Assembly: GCA_002897855.1 (NCBI GenBank)
Contig: BDTO01000053.1
Coordinates: forward strand, 45,205-109,204
Reading direction: 5' to 3'
Length of the DNA: 64,000 bases
DNA from: a bacterium BMS3Bbin05
GTDB taxonomy: Bacteria > Nitrospirota > Thermodesulfovibrionia > Thermodesulfovibrionales > BMS3Bbin05
Part shown: one piece after another, positions 25,378 to 40,333 of the stretch
Numbering within the stretch: position 1 is the first letter of the stretch
Layout: each line of letters opens with the position of its first letter
Position numbers and translations under genes: made by a program
Notes under the pieces: generated by a model
What the model was told of the DNA's origin: nothing
The model's database searches: none
What the model saw: the letters and a program-made list of their open reading frames with translations, nothing else

Positions 25378-25504
25378 AAGCAACGAAAAGATCAGGTTCT
25401 GTGAGGTCGATTCCTTTGGCGTGATATGGCATTGCAACTGCGTGATGGTCCCTGAAGTACTGAAACAGAAACTGAGAGAGATGCCGGCCTGTTGTCATGG
25501 CTGA
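25364..25504 (+). pseudogene. possible N-terminal stub of a 4HBT/YbgC-type acyl thioesterase
   Basis: A 46-codon frame too short for the track: (L)RWHESNEKIRFCEVDSFGVIWHCNCVMVPEVLKQKLREMPACCHG*. Its D-x2-G-x3-H-x2-(Y/C) spacing matches YbgC [14 protein letters not shown]. It stops inside the first codons of the exporter gene. Confidence 0.35.
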
Positions 25505-27842
25505 GTTTTCGGTTCTGCTTGCCAGGCTATCAGGTAAGAATTCAATTGCAGTAAGAATTATTATTGTACTGCTCTGTCTTCTGTCCGTCTTTGTAATATT
25601 GAAGAGCGGATTTAATGCCAATCTGCTCAGTCTTATCCCTGCAGATGCAGCCAGAACGCGCCTTTATCTTGACCTCATAAAGGATTTCGGGCTCCTGGAT
25701 GAGACATACATTGTACTTGATGGGAATATCATGCAGAATCTCCCTAAAGTGGAGAATTTTACGGGAGATCTCCGCCGCAGTCCGCTTGTAAGAGATGCCC
25801 GGTACAGACTCGACCCTTCCGTTAAGAAATATTTTTCTGACCTGCTCAGAAAGAATGTCTTCCTGTTCATGGATAACATCCAGCTAAGTAATGCACTCAA
25901 ATCGCTCAGCCCGGTTAATATAACGAAAAGGCTGAGGAAGATAAAAGACAGACTCCTGCTCCCCGCAGGAGGCGCAGCAATAGTTGACCCGCTCGGTTTT
26001 TCCGAAAGCATGCTTGCGCATATGCCTTCTCCCGATATGCCATTTGATATATCGAGCGGACTGTATCTATCCGATAAGGGGAGGCGGCTCTTTATTGTGG
26101 TAAAACCGGATGGCGAGGCAAGGGATATTGATTACGACCGGAAACTTCTGGATATGATCAACGCTTCATTCATGAAAAATTTTAAGAATGCGCCTTCAAT
26201 AAAGATGCAGATTACGGGCAGTCATGCGATAACCTATTATGAGCAGGAGATAATGAAGTCTGATATACTCAGGAATATTGTTACGGCGTTCATCGGGGTT
26301 TTCCTGATCTTTGTTTTTTTTCTCAGGTCTTTAAGGGGTATGCTTTACGCATTCATCCCCGTTGCTGCATCAATTGTCCTGACAACGGGATCATCAGCCT
26401 GTATATTCGGATCGATGAGTGAGGTGTCCGGGGCGTTTGGGGCCATGATTGTCGGGCTTGGTGTTGATCTTGCAATTGTCCTGTATATCAGATATCTTTA
26501 CAGTAAGGATATTGAAAGGTCGGTCAGTGAAACTTCCGGCGCCATATGGACAGGTGTATTGACGACGGCTGCAACATTTTACCCCATGCTCCTGTCCGAT
26601 TTCGGCGGTATCAGACAGCTCGGATTCCTGACCGGAACCGGCATCATCATCTGTGCTCTGCTGATATTCTCCCTGTCTGTATCATTTATGAAGGGGGTGA
26701 CATTTCGAACTACACGAAATACCCTGTTCGAAATGCTGCCTCTTTACGCAATCAGGTACAAAAAGCAGTTTCTGGCTGCTGCGGTCATTCTCTCGCTCAT
26801 ATCCCTGTACGGTGTAAGAGACCTCGGTTTTTCGGCTGACCTCAGGGGATTCGGAGCCCGACACAACAAGGCGAGAGAACTGTTCCAGTCGCTGGATATC
26901 AGGAGAGGCGGTTCCTTTATCTCAGGTATTGTGCCTGATATGGAAGACGTTATCAAGGACTCGAATCACATAGTACACAAACTGGAGGAAAAGGGCATAT
27001 ACAATACGGTTTCCATTGCTTCCTTTATTCCGGATGCTGCGCAGCAGTTACGGAACATCAGGAGGATAAGGTCTGTAAATGTCCGGCGTTTGCTGAAGGA
27101 TTTCGGGACCACGGCTGAGAGGCTTGGGTTTTCAGATGATCATATTCATATCATGGAGAAAAACATCGAAAAATATTTCTCCGTAGACAGGCCGGTTTCG
27201 CTTGAAGATTTTCAGGGGACGGGGATGGGAAATTTTCTGCAGAGGTTTTTCAGGAAGGTTAACGGCGGGTACAGGTTTGTCGTTATGGTGAATGATAAAA
27301 AAGACGTCAGGGATATAGTGCCGGGATATGATGTTACCGGTCCGAAGCTGGTGAGGGATGAACTCTCGGGCATGCTCAGGGACAATGCCGGGATTATTAC
27401 CCTTGTGGGCATGATCCTCGTAAATATTATCCTGTTTGCAAGTTTCAGGAATGTAAAATATGTGTTATATGCCCAGATACCGGTTATGGTTGCCATACTC
27501 GTTACCGGGGCTATCATGAATCTGCTTGGAATCAAGATCCATATCATGAACGCACTTGTCGCGGTGATGCTTTTCGGGATAGGCACGGATTATTCCATTC
27601 ATCTTATCCACCATATCCTCAGGGACAGTGATATTAATGCAATTATCAGGGGTACCGGAAGGGCCGTTTCAATAGCGGCATTTACGACGATAGCAGGTTT
27701 CGGCAGCATCTATTTTTCCTCTTACAGGGGACTTTCGGAGATGGGACTTGCGGTTACCATAGGATGTATATTGACACTCATCTTCAGTCTTGTGCTTATT
27801 CCGGTTTTTATGAACAGGCAGTTAACCGGCGGCAGGGAGTAA
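25497..27842 (+). CDS. MMPL/RND-superfamily exporter (predicted-exporter type, ~12 TM with two extracytoplasmic loops)
   Basis: 781 aa with two repeated 6-TM bundles (…FIGVFLIFVFFLRSLRGMLYAFIPVAASIVLTTG… and …LVGMILVNIILFASFRNVKYVLYAQIPVMVAILVTG…GIGTDYSIHL). Confidence 0.8.
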   Translation: MAEFSVLLARLSGKNSIAVRIIIVLLCLLSVFVILKSGFNANLLSLIPADAARTRLYLDLIKDFGLLDETYIVLDGNIMQNLPKVENFTGDLRRSPLVRDARYRLDPSVKKYFSDLLRKNVFLFMDNIQLSNALKSLSPVNITKRLRKIKDRLLLPAGGAAIVDPLGFSESMLAHMPSPDMPFDISSGLYLSDKGRRLFIVVKPDGEARDIDYDRKLLDMINASFMKNFKNAPSIKMQITGSHAITYYEQEIMKSDILRNIVTAFIGVFLIFVFFLRSLRGMLYAFIPVAASIVLTTGSSACIFGSMSEVSGAFGAMIVGLGVDLAIVLYIRYLYSKDIERSVSETSGAIWTGVLTTAATFYPMLLSDFGGIRQLGFLTGTGIIICALLIFSLSVSFMKGVTFRTTRNTLFEMLPLYAIRYKKQFLAAAVILSLISLYGVRDLGFSADLRGFGARHNKARELFQSLDIRRGGSFISGIVPDMEDVIKDSNHIVHKLEEKGIYNTVSIASFIPDAAQQLRNIRRIRSVNVRRLLKDFGTTAERLGFSDDHIHIMEKNIEKYFSVDRPVSLEDFQGTGMGNFLQRFFRKVNGGYRFVVMVNDKKDVRDIVPGYDVTGPKLVRDELSGMLRDNAGIITLVGMILVNIILFASFRNVKYVLYAQIPVMVAILVTGAIMNLLGIKIHIMNALVAVMLFGIGTDYSIHLIHHILRDSDINAIIRGTGRAVSIAAFTTIAGFGSIYFSSYRGLSEMGLAVTIGCILTLIFSLVLIPVFMNRQLTGGRE

Positions 27843-27858
27843 AACGCTCTTTAAGTCT

Positions 27859-28530
27859 ATGAGATCAGACATCTGGATATTAATGCCGGCCTTCAATGAG
27901 GAAGAGTCTATCGGCAAGGTGATAGAAGAAGTACACAGGTGTTATAAGAATGTTATAGTTGTAAATGACGGCTCAGATGATGATACGGGAGAAATTGCCG
28001 GGCAGGCCGGATGTGTTGTATTGAATCATGAGAGCAACCTCGGCAAGGGCGCTGCAATTAAGACCGGCTTCGGTTGGCTGCTTGAAAGGGAGTACTCCGC
28101 CGTTATAACACTCGATGCAGACGGCCAGCACGACCCTGCCGAGATACTGCGATTTATAGAATGTTTTGAGAAAATAAAATCTGATGCTGTAATAATCGGT
28201 AACCGGTCGATTGAAAGAGAGAGTATGCCTCTTTACAGGGCAATCCCGAACAGGATCGGGGAGCTGTTTATTTCTATTGCTGCAAGAAGGCATATCCCTG
28301 ATACCCAATCCGGATTCAGGTTATATTCGAGGAAAGTGATCGAGAAGGTCAGATGTGATTCGGACGGGTTTGAGATGGAGGCCGAGATGCTTATCAGGGC
28401 CTCAAGGGGAGGGTTCGGTATATACAGTATTCCCATACGGACGATATATCAGGCAAACTACAGCAGCCATTTCAGGCCGGTGAAGGACTTCTACAGGATA
28501 AGCAGGATAGTTTTAAGACATATCCTGTAA
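27859..28530 (+). CDS. family 2 glycosyltransferase
   Basis: 223 aa. ILMPAFNEEESIGKVIEE, VVNDGSDDDT, TLDADGQHDP (DxD). Confidence 0.9.
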   Translation: MRSDIWILMPAFNEEESIGKVIEEVHRCYKNVIVVNDGSDDDTGEIAGQAGCVVLNHESNLGKGAAIKTGFGWLLEREYSAVITLDADGQHDPAEILRFIECFEKIKSDAVIIGNRSIERESMPLYRAIPNRIGELFISIAARRHIPDTQSGFRLYSRKVIEKVRCDSDGFEMEAEMLIRASRGGFGIYSIPIRTIYQANYSSHFRPVKDFYRISRIVLRHIL

Positions 28531-28567
28531 ATTATTGGGGAATCTTTTTTATCCCGGGAGGTGGATT

Positions 28568-29020
28568 ATGTCAAAGTATAAGAAGGGATTTGTCTTGGCT
28601 GCAATTTTTATCTTTGCGGCGATCAGTACTGTATCCGCAGATGCCGTATTTGCGGGCTCTGCTCCTGCACTTGATGTAAACACTGTAATCAGGCAGCTGG
28701 ACCCTGCCGTAAATACCAGGGCGAGAATCAAGAAGTACTTCAGGTCGATAAAAGGCCGGAAGGTAAGGGGTAAAGGGAAAGTCGTGAATGTACTCGGGGG
28801 CAGAAGCAGGATTAGTGTTACAATCCTGACTTCTGCAACTAAACCCCGGAAGGGCTACAATGTTGTAATATACACAAAACAGGATGCAATATCGGAACTA
28901 TATATCCATGACAGGCTCTCTTTTGAGGGTGTGCTGTTTAAGTACAGCGCCTTCGGGGGCGGGAGCATTGCTATAAAGGGCGTATATAAAAAACTTGGAC
29001 AGGAGGAAAGTAGGCCATGA
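28568..29020 (+). CDS. small secreted hypothetical protein
   Basis: Start re-set to ATG 28568 (GGGAGGTGG upstream). MSKYKKGFVLAAIFIFAAISTVSADA is a signal peptide. The stop overlaps the next start (ATGA). Confidence 0.55.
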   Translation: MSKYKKGFVLAAIFIFAAISTVSADAVFAGSAPALDVNTVIRQLDPAVNTRARIKKYFRSIKGRKVRGKGKVVNVLGGRSRISVTILTSATKPRKGYNVVIYTKQDAISELYIHDRLSFEGVLFKYSAFGGGSIAIKGVYKKLGQEESRP

Positions 29021-29625
29021 AAAAAGTATTTATGTTGCTTTTGGTTTCGGTGTTTATCATTTCCTGCGGTGGAAGATCGGGGGTTAAACCAAAAGATAAT
29101 GCAACGAAGGGAAGAAGGATACTTAAGAGTGAAAGGGTTTTTGTCAAAGAACCGCTAAGCAGGAAATACAGCACGATTGTGATACCGGATTTTTCCTTTG
29201 AAAACGCAGAGATCCAGAAAGTCGATGAGATAAAAGATCCTGATTTTAAGGTAGCGGTAAAAAAACTGGGCTCATATGTCCCGGACAAGGTGGCGGCCTA
29301 TCTGAAATCATGGAAGGTGTTTAAGAAGGTAATAAGGGTAAAGAAGGCTAAAAAGACTTACAGGCATGCCGTAGTTCTTAAGGGCAGGTTTACTAAAATA
29401 ACATCCGGCAGCAGGGCTTTAAGATGGTTCGTGGGTTTTGGGGCGGGCTCTTCTACTCTCAGCGTTGATGGAGAACTGATTGACGCAGCCCACAAAACGA
29501 GGCTTGCAAGATTTATACAAAGCAGGCATTCACCTTTCAGCGGGGCGGGTTATCATACCATATTTAAGGCCGACGGGGTGAATATGGCTAAGGATATAGC
29601 CAGATTCATAAAGAAGCTTTACTGA
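29017..29625 (+). CDS. lipoprotein (DUF4410-like)
   Basis: MKKVFMLLLVSVFIISCGG has a lipobox. GSRALRWFVGFGAGSSTLSVDGELID resembles the DUF4410 signature as I remember it. Confidence 0.6.
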   Translation: MKKVFMLLLVSVFIISCGGRSGVKPKDNATKGRRILKSERVFVKEPLSRKYSTIVIPDFSFENAEIQKVDEIKDPDFKVAVKKLGSYVPDKVAAYLKSWKVFKKVIRVKKAKKTYRHAVVLKGRFTKITSGSRALRWFVGFGAGSSTLSVDGELIDAAHKTRLARFIQSRHSPFSGAGYHTIFKADGVNMAKDIARFIKKLY

Positions 29626-29629
29626 ATTT

Positions 29630-30907
29630 ATGAATCTCCATGTTATTGCCCCTCGCAGGAAAGAGGATATCTGGAGAAAAAAGAGGGCGACATTTACACT
29701 TCCGCCGATGGCGCTTGCAATCCTTGCCGCCCTCACTCCGGCAGGCATAAATATAAAGGTCACGGATGAACTTGTTGATGATATAGATTTTGATTATCCG
29801 GCCGATCTGGTGGCGCTGAGTGTGAATACGGCAGATGCCTTTCATTCATATGAGGTGGCGGACAGGTTCAGAAGGGCGGGCGCCAGGATAGTAATGGGTG
29901 GGATTCACCCTTCCGTAATGCCGGACGAGGCCCTTCTGCATGCCGACAGTGTGGTAATCGGAGAGGCGGAAAATAAATGGGAAGGCGTCATTGATGATTT
30001 CATTAACAATCGACTGAAAGAGAAATATAGATCGGATGATAAACCTGCCCCAGAGACCATACCCCGGCCCAGGTGGGATCTGCTGAACACAAAGAAATAC
30101 TATCTCCCGCGCACAATCCAGGCATCCCGCGGCTGTCCCTATGGCTGCAGCTTCTGCTCTTCCACCCAGTTCTTTGGCGTAAAATTCCGATTAAGACCGG
30201 TTGAGAAGGTCGTCGAAGAGGTAAGGGAGTATCCCGGAAAGATGCTGGTCTTTGTTGATGACAATATTGTGTGTAAGCCTGATTATTCAAGGGAGCTGTT
30301 CAGTGCTCTCAGGGGTCTTGGCAAGATGTGGGTGGCGCAGTCGAGCATAGATATCGCAAAAGATGCAACACTTCTGAGGCTTGCATCGGAGAGCGGCTGC
30401 GCAGGTTTGCTGATAGGGTTTGAGAGTATAACATACGGTAACAGAACGGATATAAAAAAACTCAGAACGGCCAGAGAATATGAAGAAGCGATAAGTGTCA
30501 TCAGAAGTTATGGCATCGGCGTCAATGGATCATTTGTTTTCGGTTTTGATGCGGATGACCTGGACACATTTCACTCTACGGTTGATTTTGTCCTCAGAAA
30601 CAGACTTGAGGTGAGCAATTACTGCAAGTTGACTCCATTTCCAGGGACGCGTCTCTTCAGAAAAATGGATGAAGAAGGCAGGCTGTTGCACAGGGACTGG
30701 TCGAAATACGACAGATACAATATTGTTTACCAGCCTAAAAATTTTTCCATTGATGACTTCAAGAGATATACAGACGATGCATACAGGAAAACGTATTCCA
30801 TATCTTCAATTATCAGAAGGACCCCGGGGGTTGTTAAAAATATTCCTTATTACTATGCGTTAAACCTGAGTTACCGGTTTGGGGCCAGGGCGCTGAGGAA
30901 CTCCTGA
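29630..30907 (+). CDS. B12-binding-domain radical SAM enzyme, paralogue 1
   Basis: 425 aa. The N-terminal Rossmann-like region is DLVALSVNTADAFHSYEVADRFRRAGARIVMGGIHPS. The rSAM motif is ASRGCPYGCSFC (Cx3Cx2C). Confidence 0.85.
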   Translation: MNLHVIAPRRKEDIWRKKRATFTLPPMALAILAALTPAGINIKVTDELVDDIDFDYPADLVALSVNTADAFHSYEVADRFRRAGARIVMGGIHPSVMPDEALLHADSVVIGEAENKWEGVIDDFINNRLKEKYRSDDKPAPETIPRPRWDLLNTKKYYLPRTIQASRGCPYGCSFCSSTQFFGVKFRLRPVEKVVEEVREYPGKMLVFVDDNIVCKPDYSRELFSALRGLGKMWVAQSSIDIAKDATLLRLASESGCAGLLIGFESITYGNRTDIKKLRTAREYEEAISVIRSYGIGVNGSFVFGFDADDLDTFHSTVDFVLRNRLEVSNYCKLTPFPGTRLFRKMDEEGRLLHRDWSKYDRYNIVYQPKNFSIDDFKRYTDDAYRKTYSISSIIRRTPGVVKNIPYYYALNLSYRFGARALRNS

Positions 30908-31623
30908 AGCGGCAGTGTCCTTGAGGCCTCCATGTGTTTAAAAGCAGCGGACGGCAGTTCCGTGTTTATGGAGAGGTTATCCGCATTGATTTCGAAACGG
31001 CTCTTCCCTGCTGTAACCGAAAACTCCGTCGGCAGATTTTCGTTATCCGTCTCTTCTATATCAATGGCAAAGATGAGTTTCCCATCGTTATATTTTTCTA
31101 TCCTGTAGTTTTTGAGTGTTCTCTTATTGAAGTAATATATCGAGTCTGGAGATGAAGAGTTATTGGGGGGGGGGTAAATATTTAACATATAATCATCTGC
31201 CCTTTCCGCCACGTCGGCCCTGTAAGAACGCAATTGTTTTTTGGTCGGCAGCAGAAAATGGATATTCAGGCGGGCAGTATAAAGCGTATCTTTGTTTGGA
31301 ATATATATTTCAAAAACACCTTCTGCCAGCAATATCTTCATTACGGTGATGCCGAAAGGTCCGAAGACGGACATGGACAGTGAAGCGGGTCTTTTGTAAT
31401 TCACAGCGCCCGTAAGATATGCAGCATATTCCCCATCATTGAATATCCTGATACTGGCGGTTCCGCTCAGGGTATCGATATTATCGTATGTTATTCTGTC
31501 GATGAGTTCGGAAGGAGTTGCAGGTGACCATGCCTCCGGTCTAACGGTCTCTTTCTTTGCACATGAAAAGAGAACAAATGAAATGAGGGCAATACTAACA
31601 GCTAATCTTGCCGTTTTTTTCAT
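30871..31623 (-). CDS. lipoprotein, LolB/LolA-fold-like (DUF4292-like)
   Basis: Start re-set to ATG 31623. MKKTARLAVSIALISFVLFSCAKK has a lipobox LFSC. The beta-rich remainder resembles DUF4292. The 3' end overlaps the convergent rSAM gene by 37 nt. Confidence 0.55.
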   Translation of the reverse strand: MKKTARLAVSIALISFVLFSCAKKETVRPEAWSPATPSELIDRITYDNIDTLSGTASIRIFNDGEYAAYLTGAVNYKRPASLSMSVFGPFGITVMKILLAEGVFEIYIPNKDTLYTARLNIHFLLPTKKQLRSYRADVAERADDYMLNIYPPPNNSSSPDSIYYFNKRTLKNYRIEKYNDGKLIFAIDIEETDNENLPTEFSVTAGKSRFEINADNLSINTELPSAAFKHMEASRTLPLQEFLSALAPNR

Positions 31624-32950
31624 TCCATGCTTTTTCTGCGAGCAAGCCCCATTCAGAAGCGTATCTGTCAATCAGTGGGGCAAATGAAGTTATTATATTT
31701 TCCGCTCCTTCATGTGTAAACTTTACGCCCGGCATGTTGCATACTTCCCTGTACTGTTCGGGATGGTCGACTATCATGCATGGCTGAAGGAGATTCTTGT
31801 TTGACATCTGATTTTCTCGTATCTTCCTGAACATCGGGGATGTCACGGCTTCCCTGAGCGAGGTGTCTTTGATATTATGCATGGCGAAATGACAGAACAC
31901 ACACGGCTCGACATCGCCCTTGGAATTGATGTGCAGATACTTTCTGCCGCCGGCGATGCATCCTCCCACCACGGGCCCATCATTCCAGAAATCACCGAAA
32001 AACATCTTTTTTGTTGATCTGAGGTATTCCACTCTCTGCCGGAGCATATCCCGCTGCTCCGGTGTAGGTACGAGTTCCCATGCCGTATCCCTTCCGACGG
32101 GGGTGTAAAGAAAATACCATCCTACGGTGCAACCCTGATCCATCCAGAAATCCACGAATTCGTCGGATACGAGTAACTCTGCATTATTATTTGTTACAGT
32201 TGCCGAGTATGCAAACAGTACGCCGGCTTCTTTGAGGAGCTTCATCGCGTTCAGGACTTTTTCGTAGTGGCCCGTTCCCCTTCTTGCATTTGTTTCTTTC
32301 CTGAATCCCTCTACGCTGATGGCCGGTAATACATTCCCGAGTCCGGCGAGTCTGTCGACCCTTTCTTCATTGAGCAGGCCCCCGTGAGTAAAAACGTGAA
32401 AGGCCATATCACTATGTTTTTCAAAAATATCAAAAATATCTTTCCGGAAAAAAGGCTCGCCGCCGGAAATCACTATAAAATAAATGCCCATCTCCTTGGC
32501 TTCATTCAATATCCGGTCAATGACCTCAAAGGGCAGGTCTTCATCCTTGCTGTATTTGCCTGCATAGCATCCGAAACAGTTAAGATTGCATTTCATCGAA
32601 GGACTTATCACGAGAAGGCCGGGCGGATAAAAACCCCCTTCCTGTTCTGAAAAGAGTTTTCTCCGGGTGCTTCCCACCAGCAGCTGATTAATAATGAAAT
32701 TCTTTACAATCTTCTTCTTGTGTTTACTTGAGGTTTTTTTGAGAATCTTCATCGTGGCCCCCAGGCTCGGATGTCCATTCAGCCACATTTCCCTGATTCT
32801 CCTGATGGCTCGTTTGTAGTGTGGTCTTGTTGTTGCAAGTTCTGCAAGCCGTGAATAGTGAATAAGCATGGCCGGCGAACTGGAGGACATAAGCTGAAAT
32901 AGCCCATATATTATCCGGGACAGGATGACCGGTTTGTATTTTTTATACAA
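31595..32950 (-). CDS. radical SAM enzyme with C-terminal SPASM/twitch-like Cys region and ~100-aa N-terminal extension
   Basis: 451 aa. MKCNLNCFGCYAG (Cx3Cx2C), ISGGEPF, GGCIAGGRKYLHINSKGDVEPCVFCHF. Confidence 0.85.
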   Translation of the reverse strand: MYKKYKPVILSRIIYGLFQLMSSSSPAMLIHYSRLAELATTRPHYKRAIRRIREMWLNGHPSLGATMKILKKTSSKHKKKIVKNFIINQLLVGSTRRKLFSEQEGGFYPPGLLVISPSMKCNLNCFGCYAGKYSKDEDLPFEVIDRILNEAKEMGIYFIVISGGEPFFRKDIFDIFEKHSDMAFHVFTHGGLLNEERVDRLAGLGNVLPAISVEGFRKETNARRGTGHYEKVLNAMKLLKEAGVLFAYSATVTNNNAELLVSDEFVDFWMDQGCTVGWYFLYTPVGRDTAWELVPTPEQRDMLRQRVEYLRSTKKMFFGDFWNDGPVVGGCIAGGRKYLHINSKGDVEPCVFCHFAMHNIKDTSLREAVTSPMFRKIRENQMSNKNLLQPCMIVDHPEQYREVCNMPGVKFTHEGAENIITSFAPLIDRYASEWGLLAEKAWNEKNGKISC

Positions 32951-34243
32951 TTACTTGACAGCTCCTTTTTCTTTCAATACAGCGCTGGTCCATGCGCCAG
33001 CGTCATATTCTAACATTTCTCCCTTCTTCAGGGGGAAGCATGCCATTGTCTTTACTACGGGACCTTTGTCCGAGTCTTCATATTCGGCCGGATAAAATGA
33101 TTTCCATGCATCCGTATAACCCTCGTAAAGTTCATCCGGTGTCATGCATGTCGGCCTGAAAACAACCTTCGATGTGGTGTATTCGGAAAAGTCATTTGTC
33201 AGAAGCCGTTCCTGGGAGTTCAGCCTGTCATAGAGTCTGCTGTTAGGGTATGGAGTAAGGATATGGAACTCCGCTTCCTCCAGTTCATGTTTTTTTGCAA
33301 ATTCTACTGTTCTTTCAAAAATATCCTTTTCGTCGTGATCAAACCCGAATACGAAAGAAGCGATTATCTTGATATCATTGTCGTGGATTCTCTTAATGTA
33401 ATCCCCTGCCTTTTTTGCCTGGACTCCGTCGATGACCTCGTTAAGGCTTGCGGATATCCAGGGGCTCAGGTCTACATACATGGCCCAGCAGTTGCTCTTT
33501 CTTATCAGCCTGAGGAAATCCATGTCTTCGGCAATCATGAGCGGCGCCAGGCCGACCCACTCTTTCGTGCTATTTTCCAATGCATTAAAGAAGGGCCTTG
33601 TCCTCCGTTTTGCGAGATGCAGATTATCATTTACTATGAAAACGTATCTGTCAAGCTTTTCTATCTCGGCAATGAGGGTATCAATACTGCGCATCCTGAA
33701 AGTGGTGCCAAAAGTCTGGGGGACCGAACACATGTCGCAGTTAATCGGGCATCCCCTTGATACCTGGATCGAGTTTATCGGCATATACCCCTTGCCATTA
33801 CAGATAATATCCCATCTTGGGAAAGGGACCTCGATCGGCGGATTTTTGCATTTATATATCTTTTTCAGATTCATGCTGATGAAGTCCTCAATAACCCTTT
33901 CCCAGATGCCTTCGGCCTCGCCTATGACAATGGCATCTGCATGTTTTATTGCATCATCAGGAGCAAGAGAGACATGGACTCCTCCGAGGATAACGGGTAT
34001 GCCCAGTGCCCTGTATCGATCGGCTATCTCATATGCCCTGTTCGCCTGGGGGGTCATCAGTGATATTCCCACAAGGTCCGCATCATCTTCAATTTTGAGG
34101 GGTTCTATGCGTTCATCCACAAAGGATATTTCCCAGTCGTCCGGTGTAAGTGCGGCAATTGTGGCCATACCCAGCACAGGTATGTATCTTCTGTATATCA
34201 GGGGGAAATGCCCCCATTCAGGGAAGATCAGTTTAAGTTTCAT
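32951..34243 (-). CDS. B12-binding-domain radical SAM enzyme, paralogue 2
   Basis: 430 aa. DLVGISLMTPQANRAYEIADRYRALGIPVILGGVHVS and VSRGCPINCDMC. Colinear with paralogue 1. Confidence 0.85.
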   Translation of the reverse strand: MKLKLIFPEWGHFPLIYRRYIPVLGMATIAALTPDDWEISFVDERIEPLKIEDDADLVGISLMTPQANRAYEIADRYRALGIPVILGGVHVSLAPDDAIKHADAIVIGEAEGIWERVIEDFISMNLKKIYKCKNPPIEVPFPRWDIICNGKGYMPINSIQVSRGCPINCDMCSVPQTFGTTFRMRSIDTLIAEIEKLDRYVFIVNDNLHLAKRRTRPFFNALENSTKEWVGLAPLMIAEDMDFLRLIRKSNCWAMYVDLSPWISASLNEVIDGVQAKKAGDYIKRIHDNDIKIIASFVFGFDHDEKDIFERTVEFAKKHELEEAEFHILTPYPNSRLYDRLNSQERLLTNDFSEYTTSKVVFRPTCMTPDELYEGYTDAWKSFYPAEYEDSDKGPVVKTMACFPLKKGEMLEYDAGAWTSAVLKEKGAVK

Positions 34244-35171
34244 TACCGGTTTCCTTTTTGTCTTTTAACCAGAAGGGCATGAATGTATACCACTGGTCGG
34301 GATATTTTCTTATATATTTTTCAAATATAGGGATGATATCACTGAGGTTCCTGCCAAGCGTCTCGGCCCTGTTAGAGTATACTTTTATACTAATCGGTTT
34401 TTCAATATAAATATTGTAGATATTATAACCCTCCATTATCACAAAGGCCGGGAGTATAACGGCGTCAGCAGCGGATGCAAGCATTATCGGGCCCTTGGGA
34501 AACCGAGCCTTGTGTCCGAACATTTCCATCTCAATGCCCCTGTCGTACTGCAGCCTGTCTCCCTGTATGGCGACCGCACCCCCTTCCTGAAGAATACGGA
34601 GAAGCTTGATGGAACTGAATCTGCCCGCCCCGAGTTCAACGTGTCTGATATTGCAAATACTCCTGAACCGGTTTCTCTGGCTTTCTATTATGTCCTGACT
34701 GTCCGGAAAGTAAACGATCGTAGGTGTAATGCCTGTCTTTGCGAGCTTAATGCCCCCTATCTCCCAGTTTCCCATATGGAGTGTAAGCAGTATAATGCCG
34801 TGTCCGGAGCCAATAGCTTCGTTCATGTTTTCCTCGCCGACGGTATTGATCCTGAATGATTTTATCCTGTCCTTTCCATGACTCAAATAGAAAAGGTCAA
34901 TAAGATACCAGGCGTATTTCAGAAACGTCCGGAACGCCAGGAACGAGGTGTAAAAACTGCCTTTGTCCGGGAATATTATCCTCATATTTACACGAACCGA
35001 CCTGTAATTCGCCACATTGAAACAGATGAAAATAAGAGAAAAGAAAATGGCGGTAAATCTCATGAACCACCTTGGAAGTATTTTTGATGCATATTTGAAT
35101 GCAAGAATGAGTGATTTGAAGAAGAAGTTACGCTGGTGTTTTCTGAAAACACTTTTTGCCTCTGCATGCAT
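34233..35171 (-). CDS. LpxL/HtrB-family lysophospholipid (lipid A-type) acyltransferase
   Basis: 312 aa with an N-terminal TM and LTLHMGNWEIGG (the HxxxxE acyltransferase motif of this family). It overlaps the next gene by 11 nt. Confidence 0.8.
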   Translation of the reverse strand: MHAEAKSVFRKHQRNFFFKSLILAFKYASKILPRWFMRFTAIFFSLIFICFNVANYRSVRVNMRIIFPDKGSFYTSFLAFRTFLKYAWYLIDLFYLSHGKDRIKSFRINTVGEENMNEAIGSGHGIILLTLHMGNWEIGGIKLAKTGITPTIVYFPDSQDIIESQRNRFRSICNIRHVELGAGRFSSIKLLRILQEGGAVAIQGDRLQYDRGIEMEMFGHKARFPKGPIMLASAADAVILPAFVIMEGYNIYNIYIEKPISIKVYSNRAETLGRNLSDIIPIFEKYIRKYPDQWYTFMPFWLKDKKETGNET

Positions 35172-35734: not shown

Positions 35735-35998
35735 ATGGGAAGCATTGAGGTAGTCATACTCGGGCAGAGGTATACCATCAAGGGTGACGCCGAAGAAGAT
35801 TATATCCGGGAGCTTGCCGGTTATGTCGACTCTAAAATGAAAGAGGTCCTCCATGCCGCACCGAATACCTCTCCATTGAAGGCATCGATCCTTGCGGCTC
35901 TGAATATTGCAGATGAACTCCACAGCACGGAGAAGACCCAGGCGGATCTGAAAGGGCTCGAAGAAAAGGCAAATGCCCTCAGCAGTCTTTTTGACTGA
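35735..35998 (+). CDS. zapA: cell division protein ZapA
   Basis: 87 aa. VEVVILGQRYTIKGDAEEDYIRELAGYVDSKMKEV...ILAALNIADEL is the typical ZapA pattern. Confidence 0.8.
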   Translation: MGSIEVVILGQRYTIKGDAEEDYIRELAGYVDSKMKEVLHAAPNTSPLKASILAALNIADELHSTEKTQADLKGLEEKANALSSLFD

Positions 35999-37163
35999 TA
36001 TTCTTCGATATTAATTCCTTATAAAGCGTGGCATTGTCTATCGCCGTCCCGCACACCTCGGCAAGCGACGTGGTAAATCTTATCTCTTCATCTGTAAAGT
36101 GTCTGGGTTTATCGGTAAGGAGCCTCATTATCCCTATTAGATTCCCGCGCGCAATAATTGGAAGCGTCAGCATGCTTTTGATACCTTCGCGGACGGCTTC
36201 CTTACGGTAATTTACCCTGTCATCGTTTGCTACATCATGAATGGCAACGGGTTTGAGCTGTAAGGCTTCCTTCACATTCGCCTCGGAATCTACAGGGCCG
36301 CGACCAAGGTATTCTTCCGACAAACCATGGGCAGCCACAAGCTTAAGTTTTTTACCGGTCTCATCAAGCAGCCTGATTGTTGCGGCCTTCAGACCCATAA
36401 CATCCGGAAGTTTTGTGACTATAAGGTCAAGCACTTCTTCGAGGTTCAGTGTGGAACTGACAGCCCTTGTTACCTCCTGAAATACCCTGAGATACTCCTT
36501 CTCTCTTGATACGGTTCTCTCAAACAGCCTCGCATTGTTGATCGCAATGGCCGCCTGCTCTGCGATGGCCGTAATGAACTTCAGGTCATCACCGGTATAT
36601 TTTACCGGCTCTATCGTATACATCCTGAGAACCCCTATCACTTCATCGTGAATCCTTAACGGGACCGACAGGATACTCCGGATCCCTTCCCTGACCGCCT
36701 CTTCCCTGTAAGGCGCCCCCGGATCCGACTGGATATCATATATGGAAACCGCCTTGCCGGAAAGCGCATCATCAACGCTTGCATCGGAATCGACCGGGCC
36801 CTTGTTTACATATTCTTCGCTCAGGCCGTGGTATGCCGCCACTTCCAGCTTGTTTGTTAATTTGTTCAGGAGCCGAACCATACTCGCCTTGACATTCATG
36901 ACATTGACGGCATTCGTAACTATAAGGTCGAGTACCTCCTCGAGTGAAAGGCTCGGGCTTATCGCCTTGCATATATTCTGGTAACTTTCGAGATATATCC
37001 TCTTTTCGAATATCTTTTCAGCGCAGTCGGGACACATGCTGTGCGTAAAAACCCCAAACCCTATATCTGTGAGATACTGGTCGATCCCCTCCCACCGGTC
37101 TTCTTCCAGCCTTATCTTTTTACACCATGAACAAATGGGTATAAGGTCTTTTTCTCCAGCCAT
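35979..37163 (-). CDS. N-terminal Cys4 module fused to two tandem GAF domains
   Basis: 394 aa. ICSWCKKIRLEEDRWEGIDQYL...THSMCPDCAEK is followed by two colinear GAF-like repeats (LSLEEVLDLIVTNAV... and LNLEEVLDLIVTKLP...). No output domain is present. Confidence 0.8.
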   Translation of the reverse strand: MAGEKDLIPICSWCKKIRLEEDRWEGIDQYLTDIGFGVFTHSMCPDCAEKIFEKRIYLESYQNICKAISPSLSLEEVLDLIVTNAVNVMNVKASMVRLLNKLTNKLEVAAYHGLSEEYVNKGPVDSDASVDDALSGKAVSIYDIQSDPGAPYREEAVREGIRSILSVPLRIHDEVIGVLRMYTIEPVKYTGDDLKFITAIAEQAAIAINNARLFERTVSREKEYLRVFQEVTRAVSSTLNLEEVLDLIVTKLPDVMGLKAATIRLLDETGKKLKLVAAHGLSEEYLGRGPVDSEANVKEALQLKPVAIHDVANDDRVNYRKEAVREGIKSMLTLPIIARGNLIGIMRLLTDKPRHFTDEEIRFTTSLAEVCGTAIDNATLYKELISKNISQKDC

Positions 37164-37418: not shown

Positions 37419-39959
37419 CTACTTCCTATCCAGTACCTCACGGATCTTGAGTGCCAGGCGCCTGGGAGTCAGGGGCTTCTGAATAAAAGTCTCTCCCCGC
37501 TTCAGCACGCCGTGATAAGTGATGACATCGTCAGGGTATCCCGACATAAAAATCACATCTATTTCCGGCCGCTTTATCTTCAGCGCATCAGCCAGTTCAT
37601 GGCCATTCATCCCCGGCATGATCACATCGGTCAGTAAGAGATCGATCTTCCCCTCAAAGGTATCGCCGGTCTGTAATGCCTCCCCACCGCAGGAGGCCTC
37701 CAGAAGCCGGTACCCCAATGGCTGAAGTGTATCCGCAATCAGCTTGCGGATAGTGGGTTCATCATCCACCACCAGCACTGTCTCGGTTCCTCGTACTACC
37801 ACCGGGCACTCCTTTTCACCTGCTTCCTCCACCTCACCCCCGGCAACCGGCAGGTAAATCTTAAACATTGTCCCCTTACCGGGCTCACTGTAAACCCATA
37901 TATATCCATTATGCTGCTTGACGATACCATAGACAGTTGCCAGCCCCAAACCGGTACCTTTTCCCAGCCCCTTTGTTGTGAAGAACGGCTCAAAGATTCT
38001 CTCCTGTACTTCCCTGCTCATGCCCTCTCCTGTATCGGTTAGCGACAGCATCACGTAAGAGCCGGGCCTTGCCCCTTCGTGACTCTTTGCATATTCCTCA
38101 TCCAGATCGGCATCTGCTGTCTCTATTATCAGGCTGCCGCCGCAGGGCATGGCATCCCGGGCATTTACCACCAGGTTCATCAAGATCTGATCAATCTGGC
38201 CGGGGTCGGCAATCACATTTCTGACCGGAGATTTGATATGCAGTTCCAGCAGCACATCCTCGCCGACAACAACGGAGAGCATCCTGTCCATATTCCGGAC
38301 AATAGTGTTAAGGTTAACTGCCTTTAGTTCAAGCACCTGCTTGCGGCTGAAGGCAAGAAGCTGCCGTGTAAGCGCTGTCGCTTTCTCACCAGCTTCACTG
38401 ATGATCTTGATCTTCTCCCTTACGGGATGATTATGCGGCAGTTCCTCCATGGCCATTTCGCTATAGCCGATAATAGCGGACAGCAAGTTATTGAAATCAT
38501 GGGAAATGCCGCCTGCCAGCCGCCCGACGGACTCCATCTTCCGGGATTGAAGGAGCTGGTGCTGGAGTCTTCGCTTCTCCTCTTCGGCCTGATTGCGCCC
38601 AGTGATGTCTCTTGAGATGGCCAATAAATGTTTTTTGCCCTTAAAATCAAATACGGTCCCTCTAATCTCAACATCAATCGGGCTGCCATCCTTATGAATA
38701 TTGATTGATTCAGCATAAAATTCACCACTGGTCTGAAGATCTTCCTTGAATTGTTCAAAAATGTGCTGATAATCAGGGTGGATTAATTTCCCGGCATGAA
38801 GGCCTATCAACTCTTCATGAGAATAACCATACATTTTGGATGCTTGAGGATTGGCTTCTACAATCTTACCCCTGAGATTCATTATCAAAAATGCATCACT
38901 GGCAGAATTAAAGATGCCGCGATATTGTGTCTCGCTTTTTCTCAGGGCATCTTCCGCCTGCTCGCGCTCGGTCAGCTCCTTCTGCAGGGCGCCTGTAAGA
39001 GGACGCAGGAGCAACACTATGCCAAACGTACCGAATAATATCAGGGCAATAATGATACTGGATATCAGGATAATCTGACGGTTAACGGGAGAATAAAGTT
39101 CCTCTGCATCCATCTTGACGGCGATACCCCATTGAGCGCCCTTGACAGGACAATAAGCCGTGATCACCGAATTGCCATCCTTATTTTTTGATATTGTAAT
39201 CGCGGTCTTCTTTTGGAACGATTTTTCTATCGCAAATCCGAGACAGGAGTCTCGTGGAATGGTTTTGACAGCACCACTCCCGCTCTTTCTTAATGGAAAA
39301 AACAGTTCTATCCTCTTCCCCCGGGGAACACCTATGATGGTTTCCCCCGTTTTCCCCAGCCCGGGGTAGTCTTCCACAATATGCCGCAACCGGTCGATAC
39401 TGAACACGATGATGTCGGTTCCCGCCTGGACGTTTTTTTCACCAATAATATGAACTCCCACCAGAAGATAAGATTTTTTTCCAGTAGAAACCGGCCCATG
39501 GATAACCACATCTCTGCTGTTAACAGGGGGGATCGGCCACAGATCCCTTCCCGGCAACGGCAGGCCGACTTCAACCAGAAGTTTATCCGTCGGACCAAGA
39601 CGGGTGATTCCCACCACCTCGTCGGATAATTTCATGGCATCAGACAGTTTGCCCCGGGTGTATTTCACCAGTTCCTTCAGACTAACCTCACCCCTGTTGT
39701 ATGCCTCCAACTTTTTTCTAATCTGGGTTCGGCTTGTTATCTGCAGGGCTATATCTTTTGCTCGGGACAGGTACTCATCAACTGCCATCGCTTCGATTTG
39801 CACTGCATAACTCAAGTTGTTTTGCAGGCCCTCTTTGAGGCGGGCGTATAGTGGAAGAATGCTTACCAGAGAAACGATCAATCCAATGGCAAGAATAGCC
39901 AGCGCCGAATAAATAATAATAGATTGTCTTACCCGCTTCTGAACACTTTTTTCAACCAT
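37419..39959 (-). CDS. hybrid sensor histidine kinase (TM - extracytoplasmic sensor - TM - PAS - HisKA - HATPase - REC)
   Basis: 846 aa. H-box GGISHDFNNLL, G-box DTGEGM...GKGTGLGLATVYGIV, receiver VLVVDDEP...DLLLTDVIMPGMNG. Confidence 0.9.
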   Translation of the reverse strand: MVEKSVQKRVRQSIIIYSALAILAIGLIVSLVSILPLYARLKEGLQNNLSYAVQIEAMAVDEYLSRAKDIALQITSRTQIRKKLEAYNRGEVSLKELVKYTRGKLSDAMKLSDEVVGITRLGPTDKLLVEVGLPLPGRDLWPIPPVNSRDVVIHGPVSTGKKSYLLVGVHIIGEKNVQAGTDIIVFSIDRLRHIVEDYPGLGKTGETIIGVPRGKRIELFFPLRKSGSGAVKTIPRDSCLGFAIEKSFQKKTAITISKNKDGNSVITAYCPVKGAQWGIAVKMDAEELYSPVNRQIILISSIIIALILFGTFGIVLLLRPLTGALQKELTEREQAEDALRKSETQYRGIFNSASDAFLIMNLRGKIVEANPQASKMYGYSHEELIGLHAGKLIHPDYQHIFEQFKEDLQTSGEFYAESINIHKDGSPIDVEIRGTVFDFKGKKHLLAISRDITGRNQAEEEKRRLQHQLLQSRKMESVGRLAGGISHDFNNLLSAIIGYSEMAMEELPHNHPVREKIKIISEAGEKATALTRQLLAFSRKQVLELKAVNLNTIVRNMDRMLSVVVGEDVLLELHIKSPVRNVIADPGQIDQILMNLVVNARDAMPCGGSLIIETADADLDEEYAKSHEGARPGSYVMLSLTDTGEGMSREVQERIFEPFFTTKGLGKGTGLGLATVYGIVKQHNGYIWVYSEPGKGTMFKIYLPVAGGEVEEAGEKECPVVVRGTETVLVVDDEPTIRKLIADTLQPLGYRLLEASCGGEALQTGDTFEGKIDLLLTDVIMPGMNGHELADALKIKRPEIDVIFMSGYPDDVITYHGVLKRGETFIQKPLTPRRLALKIREVLDRK

Positions 39960-40333
39960 TATTCAATCCATGTTCCAATTATAGAAAATTTTTCCCTTTA
40001 TGAAAAACAGGTGCCTGTCCCGCTGATATACCATACCTTTTTTTTATGAATTAATGTAGTCTCATCGATGTCCGAAATACTCAAAATCAATAAATGCGGA
40101 ATACCGAAAAAACAGAATTATGACACGCTCTAAAACCTTTCCAGCCCCTTCCCGGCAATAAGATCATATTTTTGAGGCTATTTTCGACCTGTATTTTAAT
40201 TTTATCATTCAGCCTTTAAACATGCAATAATAATTATGTGTTCGATAACTTATTGCATAAAGAAAATAAAACCGTTAAAATTAAAAGTAGAGAGGTGCAG
40301 ATCACAAAAATCCCAAAATCAGCGGAGGAAATC

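Follow-up and report, generated by a model that had tools for sequence, protein, structure and literature searches.

The window (the whole 64,000-nucleotide stretch analysed) carries an island of ten genes, 24958-35171, organised as two convergent operons. We consider it probable that this island serves envelope-lipid tailoring and export, with three radical SAM (rSAM) genes as its core: a SPASM/twitch enzyme, which probably belongs to the family of Mss, a synthase of membrane-spanning lipids, and two class-B-type enzymes, B12A and B12B. The joining of a probable membrane-spanning-lipid synthase with two related B12-type radical enzymes, an acyltransferase and an exporter gives a new form of the known lipid-rSAM systems, and the Nitrospirota island offers a testable lead to how inert lipid tails are modified in anaerobic bacteria.

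Organisation of the island

The plus-strand operon begins with a FabA-like gene (24958-25377, +; 139 aa, 3-hydroxyacyl dehydratase fold; Pfam FabA 31.4 bits, cut-off 23), which adjoins the MMPL gene here as in locus L014. It is followed by an MMPL/HAE3-type RND lipid exporter (25497-27842, +; 781 aa; Pfam MMPL 81.4 bits), whose best NCBIfam matches, HpnN (201.7 bits, cut-off 751.85) and HAE3, were both below cut-off, and by a family-2 glycosyltransferase (GT2; 27859-28530, +; 223 aa; Pfam Glycos_transf_2 86.3 bits) of the polyprenyl-phosphate type (PpgS/AglJ-like; neither NCBIfam PpgS, at 117 bits, nor AglJ, at 112 bits, reaches its cut-off). GT2 and MMPL are conserved together in the Nitrospirota loci, where they are adjacent; in Desulfobacterota, MMPL orthologues adjoin B12A orthologues. 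The next gene encodes a secreted protein with a signal-like N-terminal segment (28535-29020, +; 161-aa ORF), for which Pfam and NCBIfam searches returned no match; its start lies 11 codons later in public assemblies (150 aa), and its copy in L001 is 51% identical. A DUF4410 lipoprotein (29017-29625, +; 202 aa, lipobox IISC; Pfam DUF4410 72.3 bits) precedes B12A (29630-30907, +; 425 aa; Pfam B12-binding 44.3 and Radical_SAM 54.3 bits). In L086 as well, a DUF4410 gene lies upstream of a B12-rSAM/LpxL-like/SPASM module.

The minus-strand operon opens with the gene for an LpxL/HtrB-family acyltransferase of the lysophospholipid/lipid A type (34233-35171, -; 312 aa; Pfam Lip_A_acyltrans 89.3 bits), with PIM acyltransferase and lipid A lauroyl acyltransferase as best NCBIfam matches, below cut-off. 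B12B (32951-34243, -; 430 aa; Pfam B12-binding 52.0 bits and, weakly, DUF4070 25.2 bits) and the SPASM/twitch rSAM (31595-32950, -; 451 aa, TTG start; Pfam Radical_SAM 84.5 and SPASM 34.8 bits) follow and abut, B12B ending at 32951 and the SPASM gene starting at 32950. Then comes a lipoprotein gene (30871-31671, -; 250-266 aa), which possibly has its own promoter. Its product is weakly LolB/DUF4292-like (Pfam DUF4292 E 0.0013; NCBIfam LolB1 22.5 bits, cut-off 50), and translation probably begins at the ATG at 31623, giving 250 aa with a signal peptide and lipobox LFSC, as public assemblies also call it. It is this gene, between the SPASM gene and B12A, that overlaps the 3' end of B12A (37 nt), and the overlap was present in every Nitrospirota locus examined. 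The earlier note had described two opposing operons that converge on the third rSAM. The convergence holds, but the SPASM gene is not the meeting point, belonging as it does to the same operon as B12B. Gaps or overlaps across the island are 0-37 nt, and this tight packing leaves no space for extra genes.

The three rSAM enzymes had been proposed to act on unactivated lipid carbons. The genomic context supports this proposal and fits no other reading: the trio is surrounded by an LpxL/HtrB-family acyltransferase, a GT2, an MMPL/HpnN-like exporter and a FabA-like dehydratase, together with three genes for secreted proteins or lipoproteins. No KS, ACP or Ger gene was found within the window, indicating that substrate supply is encoded elsewhere.

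Conservation and lipid context in other genomes

The order LpxL-like, B12B, SPASM ... lipoprotein, converging B12A ... GT2, MMPL recurs in 15 Nitrospirota loci (L001-L014 and L072), so the arrangement is not a matter of chance; the island is a conserved feature of Thermodesulfovibrionales-type Nitrospirota. A literature search found no lipid data for Thermodesulfovibrionales. LpxL-like genes adjoin B12B or SPASM homologues in Nitrospirota and in L018, L046, L050, L086 and L087. Of 49 SPASM loci with flanks of 8 kb or more, only 15, chiefly from Nitrospirota, had B12-rSAM neighbours, and the SPASM/B12-rSAM partnership is therefore lineage-specific.

In Desulfobacterota (L015-L026), the SPASM orthologue lies inside a type-II fatty-acid-synthase-like cluster, surrounded by KS, KS/CLF, FabA-like dehydratase, 4HBT thioesterase and SDR genes and accompanied by GT2, a CsgG-like lipoprotein and MMPL. 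The same loci encode a BcrAD activase and a DUF2229/HGD-D protein, whose domains are of the types found in Ger, an ether-lipid enzyme (Ger/PlsA-type). The L086 cluster contains ACP, KS, two phytoene-desaturase-like genes, DUF4410, B12-rSAM, LpxL-like and SPASM genes, and adjoins bamA-skp-lpxD-fabZ-lpxA-lpxI. L003 also gave a weak ApeP-like match, and L086 contains an ApeP/ApeI-like gene. Elsewhere, SPASM family members neighbour LPG_synthase_TM (Caldisericales) or LpxL-like genes (Omnitrophota); in Firmicutes they stand alone, with lipid neighbours absent.

The island might instead form that half of a specialised secondary-lipid pathway of the APE/ladderane type which handles tailoring and export, the pathway being that of the TIGR04072-marked FAS-II-like supercluster. 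Instead of tail-to-tail coupling, the SPASM enzyme would then carry out some other reaction on a polyunsaturated chain, for example cyclisation, desaturation or cross-linking, and would yield a minor lipid of the outer membrane rather than a bulk membrane-spanning one. The set of acyltransferase, GT2, MMPL, LolA/LolB-like and dehydratase genes presumably parallels the genes for anchoring and export in aryl-polyene clusters. The Desulfobacterota orthologues occur with KS/CLF, KR, DH and TE genes and with a TIGR04072 protein above cut-off (397.7 bits, cut-off 360), and in Nitrospirota L003 a TIGR04072 gene near cut-off (353.8/360 bits) clusters with SDR, FabA-like and thioesterase genes. The two phytoene-desaturase-like genes of L086 likewise recall the Kuenenia and Desulfotalea clusters (PMC2649909). 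By contrast, monoderm Firmicutes carry a solitary gene of the same SPASM family, and the family also occurs in taxa reported as Mss holders, which argues for a general membrane-lipid reaction, and KS, ACP and TIGR04072 genes are absent from the window. We regard this alternative as unlikely.

The SPASM/twitch enzyme

From its letters, the third rSAM had been described as bearing CNLNCFGC and CIAGG...GDVEPCVFCHF and an N-terminal helical extension of about 100 aa. Both features were confirmed: in the AlphaFold2 model (pLDDT 91.4), residues 2-102 form five helices with no strand, and the rSAM motif is C121-x3-C125-x2-C128. A C-terminal auxiliary-cluster region is also present. Over 311 family members, the only conserved C-terminal cysteines are C331, C350 and C391, with C353 of 'CVFC' being a cysteine in 45% of them; this pattern fits one, twitch-like auxiliary cluster better than a complete SPASM domain with two. 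A single cluster at C331, C350 and C391 is probable.

The protein has more than 6700 homologues with alignments starting at residue 1. Along its full length (442 aa aligned, N-terminal domain included) it shares 38% identity with the Moorella member (E 3e-120). Its family spans Nitrospirota, Desulfobacterota, Actinomycetota, Caldisericales, Atribacterota, Omnitrophota, Poribacteria and Planctomycetota, as well as Halanaerobium and Woesearchaeota, with further members in Moorella, Thermanaeromonas, Natranaerofaba, Halothermothrix and Natranaerobius. The same taxa have been reported to hold Mss homologues (PMC13159169; PMC11868695; PMC13274423 Table 2), with Thermotoga maritima Tmari_0825 and Thermoanaerobacter ethanolicus WP_129545148.1 as confirmed Mss enzymes (Sahonero-Canavesi et al. 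2022, PMC13159169). With the Moorella protein as proxy, and given this taxonomic coincidence, we hold it probable that the SPASM protein is a member of the Mss family.

We also considered Tes as an identity for the protein and rejected it: the sequence match was confined to the CxxxCxxC region (E 2.6e-3), and GDGT-MAS (7tol) came 45th in the fold ranking (TMq 0.39), below peptide maturases such as SuiB and SkfB (TMq about 0.52). More broadly, all three rSAMs fall outside the known families tested, namely Tes, HpnR, HpnJ, BchE and TIGR04072.

Among solved structures, the protein comes closest in sequence and in fold to SkfB and SuiB, which are peptide maturases, and to anSME, a sulfatase maturase; the NCBIfam list is led by NirJ2, AhbD and mycofactocin maturase. 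The protein might accordingly be a RiPP peptide maturase or a cofactor-maturing enzyme (AhbD/NirJ/PqqE-like), the lipid genes being mere neighbours. However, those NCBIfam scores are far under cut-off (91/500, 86/500 and 83/265 bits), and the N-terminal domain, being purely helical, is not a winged-helix RiPP recognition element. The island encodes neither a peptidase nor an ABC exporter and leaves no intergenic space in which a precursor-peptide gene could lie, and synteny with lipid genes extends across several phyla. A maturase function is close to refuted.

Two B12-type paralogues

The view that B12A and B12B are colinear paralogues was upheld by their pairwise alignment (367 aa aligned with 36% identity, 57% positives and 4 gaps; E 3e-85), in which the common N-terminal Rossmann motif is seen; RGCPxxCxxC is present in both. 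Both passed the Pfam B12-binding cut-off of 32.1 bits. B12A combines an N-terminal B12-binding-type Rossmann domain with the rSAM motif C169-x3-C173-x2-C176; B12B scored 24.6 bits against Radical_SAM, under the cut-off of 29.5, with its CxxxCxxC motif intact. Neither reached the NCBIfam cut-off of any curated family, including HpnR, HpnJ, BchE and TIGR04072.

The pair are more similar to each other than to the other B12-rSAM families of the same loci (22-26% identity, 63-132 bits), and neighbour-joining places A and B with a Desulfobacterota sister clade, separate from these other B12-rSAMs. However, more than 100 clusters (50% identity level) outscored the B12A cluster against B12B, so the two are not mutual nearest database relatives. 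Inside one large uncharacterised subfamily, such similarity is typical.

Each paralogue has its own module. B12A orthologues (58-75% identity in Nitrospirota, 47-51% in Desulfobacterota) pair with GT2, MMPL and lipoprotein genes, and A-type genes occur with these in L081, L084 and L085. B12B orthologues (57-69% identity) always follow an LpxL-like gene, as does the nearest outside relative (44%), and in L018 and L087 the B-type and its closest relatives come directly behind one; the B-type pairs with the acyltransferase.

The AlphaFold2 model of B12A (pLDDT 91.5) has a Rossmann domain and an rSAM barrel, as in class B enzymes. Its best fold match was AprD4 (TMq 0.77), followed by MgmA (0.65), TsrM, CysS, OxsB and TokK, and AprD4 was also its best PDB sequence match (E 8e-15). 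AprD4 has a Rossmann domain yet binds no cobalamin (PMC12931638), and for this reason methylase chemistry is something that we only infer. Like AprD4, the paralogues might be cobalamin-independent and perform a radical reaction without methylation, for example a dehydration, a rearrangement or the formation of a C-C bond, which might target a sugar or glycerol head group rather than the alkyl chain; GT2 shares an operon with B12A. Against this, both paralogues passed the Pfam B12-binding cut-off, the only PDB sequence match of B12B is the cobalamin-dependent methylase MgmA (PDB 9ccb), and identity to AprD4 is only about 21%, with 61.9 and 25.9 bits for the paralogues against the NCBIfam AprD4 model (cut-off 500). 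We judge a cobalamin-independent reaction of this kind improbable. We give cobalamin-dependent methylation somewhat less than an even chance.

Proposed pathway

We propose that the acyltransferase would transfer a fatty acyl chain to a lipid or glycolipid acceptor that GT2 helps to build. Using 5'-deoxyadenosyl radicals and one auxiliary [4Fe-4S] cluster, the SPASM/twitch enzyme would then link two alkyl tails through unactivated carbons (Csp3-Csp3) into a dimeric or membrane-spanning chain; we put this carbon-carbon coupling at even chances. The B12-type paralogues would functionalise other unactivated chain carbons, most likely by C-methylation. The MMPL pump and the lipoproteins would deliver the product to the outer membrane, a destination that we hold to be about as probable as not.

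Comparison with known systems

APE clusters contain anchoring and export genes for the ApeD acyltransferase, ApeJ GT2, ApeM MMPL, ApeL/N lipoproteins and ApeI/P dehydratases. The non-rSAM genes of the island represent the same set of domain types, whereas KS, ACP and adenylation genes are absent from the window. We know of no rSAM genes in APE clusters.

AprD4 (PDB 6fd2) and MgmA share the Rossmann-plus-rSAM-barrel fold with the paralogues (sequence E-values 8e-15 to 9e-10) at only about 18-21% identity, and their substrates, an aminoglycoside and a protein glutamine, are unrelated. The two enzymes bracket the possible chemistry of the paralogues without settling it. Tes/GDGT-MAS, like the SPASM protein, combines an rSAM domain with C-terminal iron-sulfur domains, but its cysteine complement differs, and the coupling of unactivated lipid carbons that Tes performs is only proposed for the window protein.

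TIGR04072, the 'lipid biosynthesis B12-binding/radical SAM protein', is known from the FAS-II superclusters of Kuenenia and Desulfotalea (Rattray et al. 2009, PMC2649909). In Desulfobacterota it is encoded in the loci that carry the SPASM orthologues, a situation that one Nitrospirota locus comes close to, and deacetylase, lipoprotein, KS and desaturase-like neighbours are common to these loci and the superclusters. B12A (64 bits) and B12B (46 bits), however, stay far below the 360-bit cut-off; they share 22-26% identity with the TIGR04072 proteins that these loci encode, and represent a different subfamily.

Mss enzymes, like the window protein, are rSAM enzymes from anaerobes, with a matching taxonomic spread that includes Woesearchaeota, Poribacteria, Natranaerofaba, Moorella and Halanaerobiaceae, and the Desulfobacterota SPASM orthologue lies near genes with Ger-type domains. 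In the organisms of the confirmed enzymes, as in our Firmicutes loci, the gene stands alone, whereas in the window and in Desulfobacterota it lies inside an acyltransferase/GT2/MMPL/lipoprotein island with B12-type rSAMs, a setting not described in the cited Mss literature.

The gms-grs-gmm cluster of Thermococcus guaymasensis, in which the genes for a SPASM/twitch GMGT synthase and for B12-rSAM enzymes acting as ring synthase and methylase lie together (Garcia et al. 2024, PMC11214058), resembles the window in architecture, compared by gene arrangement alone. Its substrates are isoprenoid tetraethers; two auxiliary clusters are proposed for Gms, whereas the window family has only three conserved C-terminal cysteines; and the B12 proteins of the window differ in being paralogues of each other. 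What the two systems would have in common is a C-C-forming SPASM/twitch rSAM together with two B12-binding rSAMs directed at the same lipid tails, roles that are proposed ones for the window.

An island of ten genes in two convergent operons

ORF analysis of the window revealed an island of ten closely packed genes arranged in two convergent operons (24958-35171), which were assigned by Pfam and NCBIfam searches. The forward-strand operon begins with a FabA-like dehydratase (24958-25377; Pfam FabA, 31.4 bits), an MMPL/HAE3 exporter (25497-27842) and a family-2 glycosyltransferase (GT2; 27859-28530). These are followed by a secreted protein of 150-161 aa without a Pfam or NCBIfam family match (28535-29020), a DUF4410 lipoprotein (29017-29625) and B12A (29630-30907), a B12-type rSAM protein recognized by its Pfam B12-binding match and rSAM motif. 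On the reverse strand, an LpxL/HtrB-family (LpxL-like) acyltransferase (34233-35171) is followed by B12B, the paralogue of B12A recognized in the same way (32951-34243), a SPASM/twitch rSAM protein bearing a Pfam SPASM match and the motif CNLNCFGC (31595-32950), and a lipoprotein with weak similarity to LolB/DUF4292 (30871-31671, likely start 31623). The TTG start of the SPASM gene directly abuts the stop of B12B and is supported because homologues align from residue 1. The earlier note described the two operons as converging on the SPASM gene. This gene is co-directional with B12B and is therefore not the convergence point; the lipoprotein gene stands between it and B12A, and the 3' ends of the lipoprotein gene and B12A overlap by 37 nt (30871-30907). 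A near-consensus sigma-70-like site (TTTACA-17-TATAAT, 11/12 matches; 31692-31720, reverse strand) lies in the 3'-terminal part of the SPASM gene, a short distance upstream of the lipoprotein gene, which by this consensus match may therefore have its own promoter.

Beyond the end of the acyltransferase gene lie the housekeeping genes for ZapB and ZapA. At the FabA-like end, a TrmB-like regulator and an IlvE-type branched-chain aminotransferase (22983-24640), the latter likewise a housekeeping gene, are encoded immediately upstream of the island and on the same strand, a pair that is not kept at the other loci; the IlvE-type enzyme could supply iso-branched fatty-acid primers. The remainder of the window is housekeeping (feoB, argG, dprA, topA, the nuo operon and two-component regulators). 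The window as a whole has no KS, ACP, Ger or Ger-like gene, and neither a cobalamin riboswitch nor any other RNA element (Rfam) or tRNA. On the far side of zapA/zapB, near the island, a double-GAF protein with an N-terminal CxxC...CxxC segment (CSWCKK...CPDC; 35979-37163, reverse strand) is followed by a PAS/histidine-kinase/receiver hybrid (37419-39959). Other genes in the window encode a baeRF family 12/Host_attach domain protein (40238-40777, forward strand; Pfam, 75.7 bits), a 1000-aa fusion of peptidase M1, ChaN/Tiki haem-binding and PDZ domains (11909-14911, forward strand) and, at a distance of 26 kb from the island, an outer-membrane channel of the FadL/TodX type for hydrophobic compounds (61201-62574, reverse strand; Pfam Toluene_X, 129 bits).

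Conservation of the island in Nitrospirota

Fifteen Nitrospirota loci encode a SPASM protein 71-76% identical to that of the window, and all of them kept the order LpxL-like, B12B, SPASM. Where the flank permitted, the convergent lipoprotein gene/B12A pair, and then GT2 and MMPL, were kept in these loci as well. An insertion of 1.5-7 kb separates the SPASM gene from the lipoprotein gene in 7 of the 15. The 3'-overlapping lipoprotein gene/B12A pair was never split, and its overlap measured about 28-37 nt in all Nitrospirota loci. None of these neighbours was found within the short flank of a further Nitrospirota locus with a more distant SPASM copy (51%; L022). The island is thus real and conserved, and its arrangement is more than chance.

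Of the 49 loci with enough flank, 15 have a B12-rSAM gene no more than 8 kb from the SPASM gene. A universal partnership between Mss (the synthase of membrane-spanning lipids) and B12-rSAM proteins was rejected on this count, which indicates that the link is lineage-specific. In Nitrospirota, both paralogue modules and the Mss-like gene have been brought together.

The SPASM/twitch protein is a probable member of the Mss family

The SPASM protein matches Pfam SPASM at 34.8 bits (cut-off, 21.5), in agreement with the earlier assignment of a third rSAM carrying CNLNCFGC. Its AlphaFold2 model (pLDDT 91.4) bears out the proposed helical N-terminal extension, with five helices in residues 2-102. 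Only six cysteines are universal in 311 family members: C121, C125 and C128 of the rSAM cluster, and C331, C350 and C391. The three universal C-terminal cysteines point to a single, twitch-like auxiliary cluster with three Cys ligands; the sequence comparison thus indicates one auxiliary cluster, not two. In the auxiliary-cluster region of the earlier note, C353 of CVFC is Cys in only 45% of the 311 members; C274 is Cys in 50%.

The best fold matches of the model were SPASM/twitch enzymes (SuiB, SkfB and anSME; TMq about 0.52), and the fold search returned these generic enzymes with no lipid-specific relative. The best NCBIfam score was 91 of the 500 bits required for NirJ2. Tes (GDGT-MAS; PDB 7tol) was rejected as the family of this protein: phmmer against 7tol gave E 2.6e-3 over residues 115-186 only, which span the cluster motif, Foldseek placed Tes at rank 45 (TMq 0.39), and only three C-terminal cysteines are conserved. 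The earlier note had also named a peptide-modifying (RiPP) maturase with a nearby precursor peptide. This too was rejected, since the five helices of the N-terminal 102 residues include no strand and hence no winged-helix RiPP recognition element, the genes abut or overlap, and the island contains no peptidase or ABC exporter.

A homology search with the SPASM protein gave more than 6700 matches, with members in Nitrospirota, Desulfobacterota, Actinomycetota, Caldisericales, Atribacterota, Halanaerobium, Omnitrophota, Poribacteria, Planctomycetota and Woesearchaeota. With a Clostridia member (L069) as the query, members in Moorella, Thermanaeromonas, Natranaerofaba, Halothermothrix and Natranaerobius were also recovered; Thermoanaerobacter and Thermotoga were not reached among the matches listed for this search. 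Published Mss homologues are named in Caldiserica, Nitrospirae, Atribacterota, deltaproteobacteria and DPANN archaea, and Moorella, including Moorella thermoacetica, is named as an Mss holder (PMC13159169, Fig. 4A for Moorella). The Bacillota families listed for Mss include Halanaerobiaceae, Moorellaceae, Natranaerofabaceae and Thermoanaerobacteraceae (PMC13274423). In a Black Sea study, archaeal Mss matches were confined to Woesearchaeia, and bacterial ones include Poribacteria and Omnitrophota (PMC11868695).

The published homology criteria for Mss are an identity of 30% or more together with E <= 1e-50 against Tmari_0825 or WP_129545148.1. Using the Moorella sulfitireducens protein as a proxy for a confirmed Mss, we found 38% identity to the window protein (E 3e-120) across 442 aa that include the N-terminal domain. 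The protein carries the rSAM CxxxCxxC, and the family is spread among anaerobes as published for Mss. By this proxy and the taxonomic spread, the SPASM protein probably belongs to the Mss family.

The Natranaerofaba carboxydovora chromosome has two members of the SPASM family (P0247 and P0248), 61-63% identical to the L069 query. A Phycisphaerae locus (L033:6851-9917) has a side-by-side pair of SPASM rSAM paralogues in divergent orientation, about 25% identical to each other, which may be an mss-like and a gms-like gene.

B12A and B12B are old paralogues in a large subfamily

As proposed in the earlier note, B12A and B12B are paralogues that align colinearly, at 36% identity (57% positives) across 367 aa, with 4 gaps and E 3e-85. 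Both have RGCPxxCxxC, and both exceed the Pfam B12-binding cut-off (PF02310; 44.3 bits for B12A and 52.0 bits for B12B; cut-off, 32.1). That their similarity might be mere B12-rSAM background is contradicted by the scores: A versus B gave 255 bits, and comparison with the TIGR04072-type, HpnR-like, HpnJ/BchE-like and 521-aa-type B12-rSAMs of the loci gave 63-132 bits at 22-26% identity. In a neighbour-joining tree, the A-type and B-type orthologues and a Desulfobacterota sister clade grouped apart from the other B12-rSAMs of the loci. Desulfobacterota orthologues (47-51%) fell within the A clade, indicating that the A/B duplication is old. An exhaustive search with B12B yielded 1529 relatives at E <= 1e-30 among 50%-identity cluster representatives, and more than 100 of these clusters outscored the B12A cluster. 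A and B therefore belong to one large, uncharacterized subfamily and are not a private duplication. A recent tandem duplication was rejected, since the split is older than the sharing of A-type genes with Desulfobacterota and many database clusters lie nearer to B than A does.

Each paralogue has its own partner module. The A-type genes of Desulfobacterota always lie beside a CsgG-like lipoprotein, GT2, an MMPL pump and a class I methyltransferase, and none has a SPASM gene in its vicinity. B-type genes, like their closest relatives, lie directly 3' of an LpxL-like gene in Nitrospirota, in the Desulfobacterota locus L018 and in L087/L088, two loci without a SPASM gene whose B-type relative is 44% identical.

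None of the three rSAM proteins of the island reached the cut-off of a curated NCBIfam family. The candidates rejected for B12A and B12B, respectively, were HpnR (67.5 and 36.0 bits; cut-off, 650), HpnJ (76.1 and 70.3; 577.6), BchE (94.4 and 70.2; 481), TIGR04072 (64.1 and 46.1; 360), PhpK (79.0 and 35.3; 600) and MgmA (69.9 and 57.2; 360). For models of GrsA/GrsB, Gmm, Gms and HpnP, the profile libraries searched gave no match.

Both paralogues have the N-terminal Rossmann domain and rSAM CxxxCxxC of class B enzymes, and the B12A model (AlphaFold2, pLDDT 91.5) showed the same Rossmann-plus-barrel fold. Its best fold match was AprD4 (TMq 0.77), and the cobalamin-dependent MgmA, TsrM, CysS, OxsB and TokK came next; the only sequence match of B12B in the PDB was MgmA (9ccb). 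By analogy with most characterized class B enzymes, C-methylation of alkyl carbons would be the likeliest reaction of the paralogues. A reaction without cobalamin is still in contention, and the top-ranking fold match of B12A speaks for it, as AprD4 binds no cobalamin (PMC12931638).

Lipid genes around the SPASM orthologues of other phyla

In the Desulfobacterota loci L015-L026, the SPASM orthologue is 55-58% identical and has as neighbours two KS, a FabA-like dehydratase, a 4HBT thioesterase, an SDR, GT2, an ATP-grasp protein, a CsgG/NHL lipoprotein and an MMPL pump. A protein of TIGR04072, the 'lipid biosynthesis B12/rSAM' family, lies about 8 kb off (397.7 bits; cut-off, 360). A BcrAD activase was found in eight of the Desulfobacterota loci and a CrtC-DUF2229-HGD-D protein in six. 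In L015-L025 (for example, L017:15886-19746), the BcrAD-type activase and a 961-aa CrtC-lipocalin/DUF2229/HGD-D fusion, which no NCBIfam model matches, adjoin MMPL two genes from the SPASM orthologue. BcrAD, DUF2229 and HGD-D are constituent domains of the ether-lipid enzyme Ger (Ger/PlsA domain types).

At another locus (L086:1-21392), a module of DUF4410, B12-rSAM, LpxL-like and SPASM genes comes after KS, ACP, cyclases and two phytoene-desaturase-like genes and ahead of the outer-membrane/lipid A genes bamA-skp-lpxD-fabZ-lpxA-lpxI; its B12-rSAM (521 aa) is of a different subfamily from A and B. The SPASM gene has an LPG_synthase_TM neighbour in Caldisericales and an LpxL-like neighbour in Omnitrophota, and by neighbourhood inspection it stands alone in Firmicutes. 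The island is almost certainly lipid-related.

Interpretation and comparison with known systems

Taken together, we lean towards lipid tailoring as the explanation of the island. It is probably a variant of known lipid-rSAM systems, in which a probable Mss has been drawn into an acyltransferase/GT2/MMPL export island, along with two representatives of an uncharacterized B12-type subfamily. Our literature search found no paper describing such an island or cluster type, none naming the enzymes of brGDGT methylation or cyclization, and nothing specific on membrane-spanning lipids of Thermodesulfovibrio. A 2026 review of lipid rSAM enzymes covers almost exclusively those of isoprenoid lipids; for fatty-acyl lipids it has only Mss, Jaw5 and unproven ladderane candidates, and apart from the latter no B12-rSAM acting on bacterial fatty-acyl lipids (PMC13459092).

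The island places a probable Mss in physical linkage with two B12-type rSAMs, an acyltransferase and an exporter, giving three concrete genes for joint expression, and it is a hint that in some diderm anaerobes such lipids travel to the outer membrane. A more specific reading, which we consider rather improbable, is that the island is the bacterial fatty-acyl counterpart of archaeal Tes/Gms plus Grs/Gmm. The Mss-type synthase would make membrane-spanning chains, the paralogues would tailor them position-specifically as C-methylases or ring formers, and the product would be exported to the outer membrane. If so, the paralogues would be candidates for the enzymes that add the extra C5/C6 methyls or cyclopentane rings to the branched GDGT-type lipids of anaerobes; widely used proxies of palaeotemperature and pH are based on how far bacterial branched tetraethers are methylated and cyclized. 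Should the paralogues prove cobalamin-free or act on head groups, they would still define a large, uncharacterized B12-rSAM-like subfamily.

Among known systems, the SPASM protein comes closest to the Mss family, of which it is a probable member. The gene set of the island may overlap the anchoring/export half of aryl-polyene (APE) clusters. Of the domain types of an APE-type module, LPLAT-type acyltransferase, GT2, MMPL, LolA/LolB-like lipoprotein and FabA-like dehydratase occur in the island, although the LolB-like match is weak (E 0.0013); the KS and ACP of that module, absent from the window, are present in the related Desulfobacterota loci. The wider gene set also has an overlap with the Kuenenia/Desulfotalea FAS-II superclusters. 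In architecture, the nearest precedent is the archaeal gms-grs-gmm cluster, in which a SPASM/twitch cross-linking enzyme is likewise clustered with two B12-rSAM tailoring enzymes.
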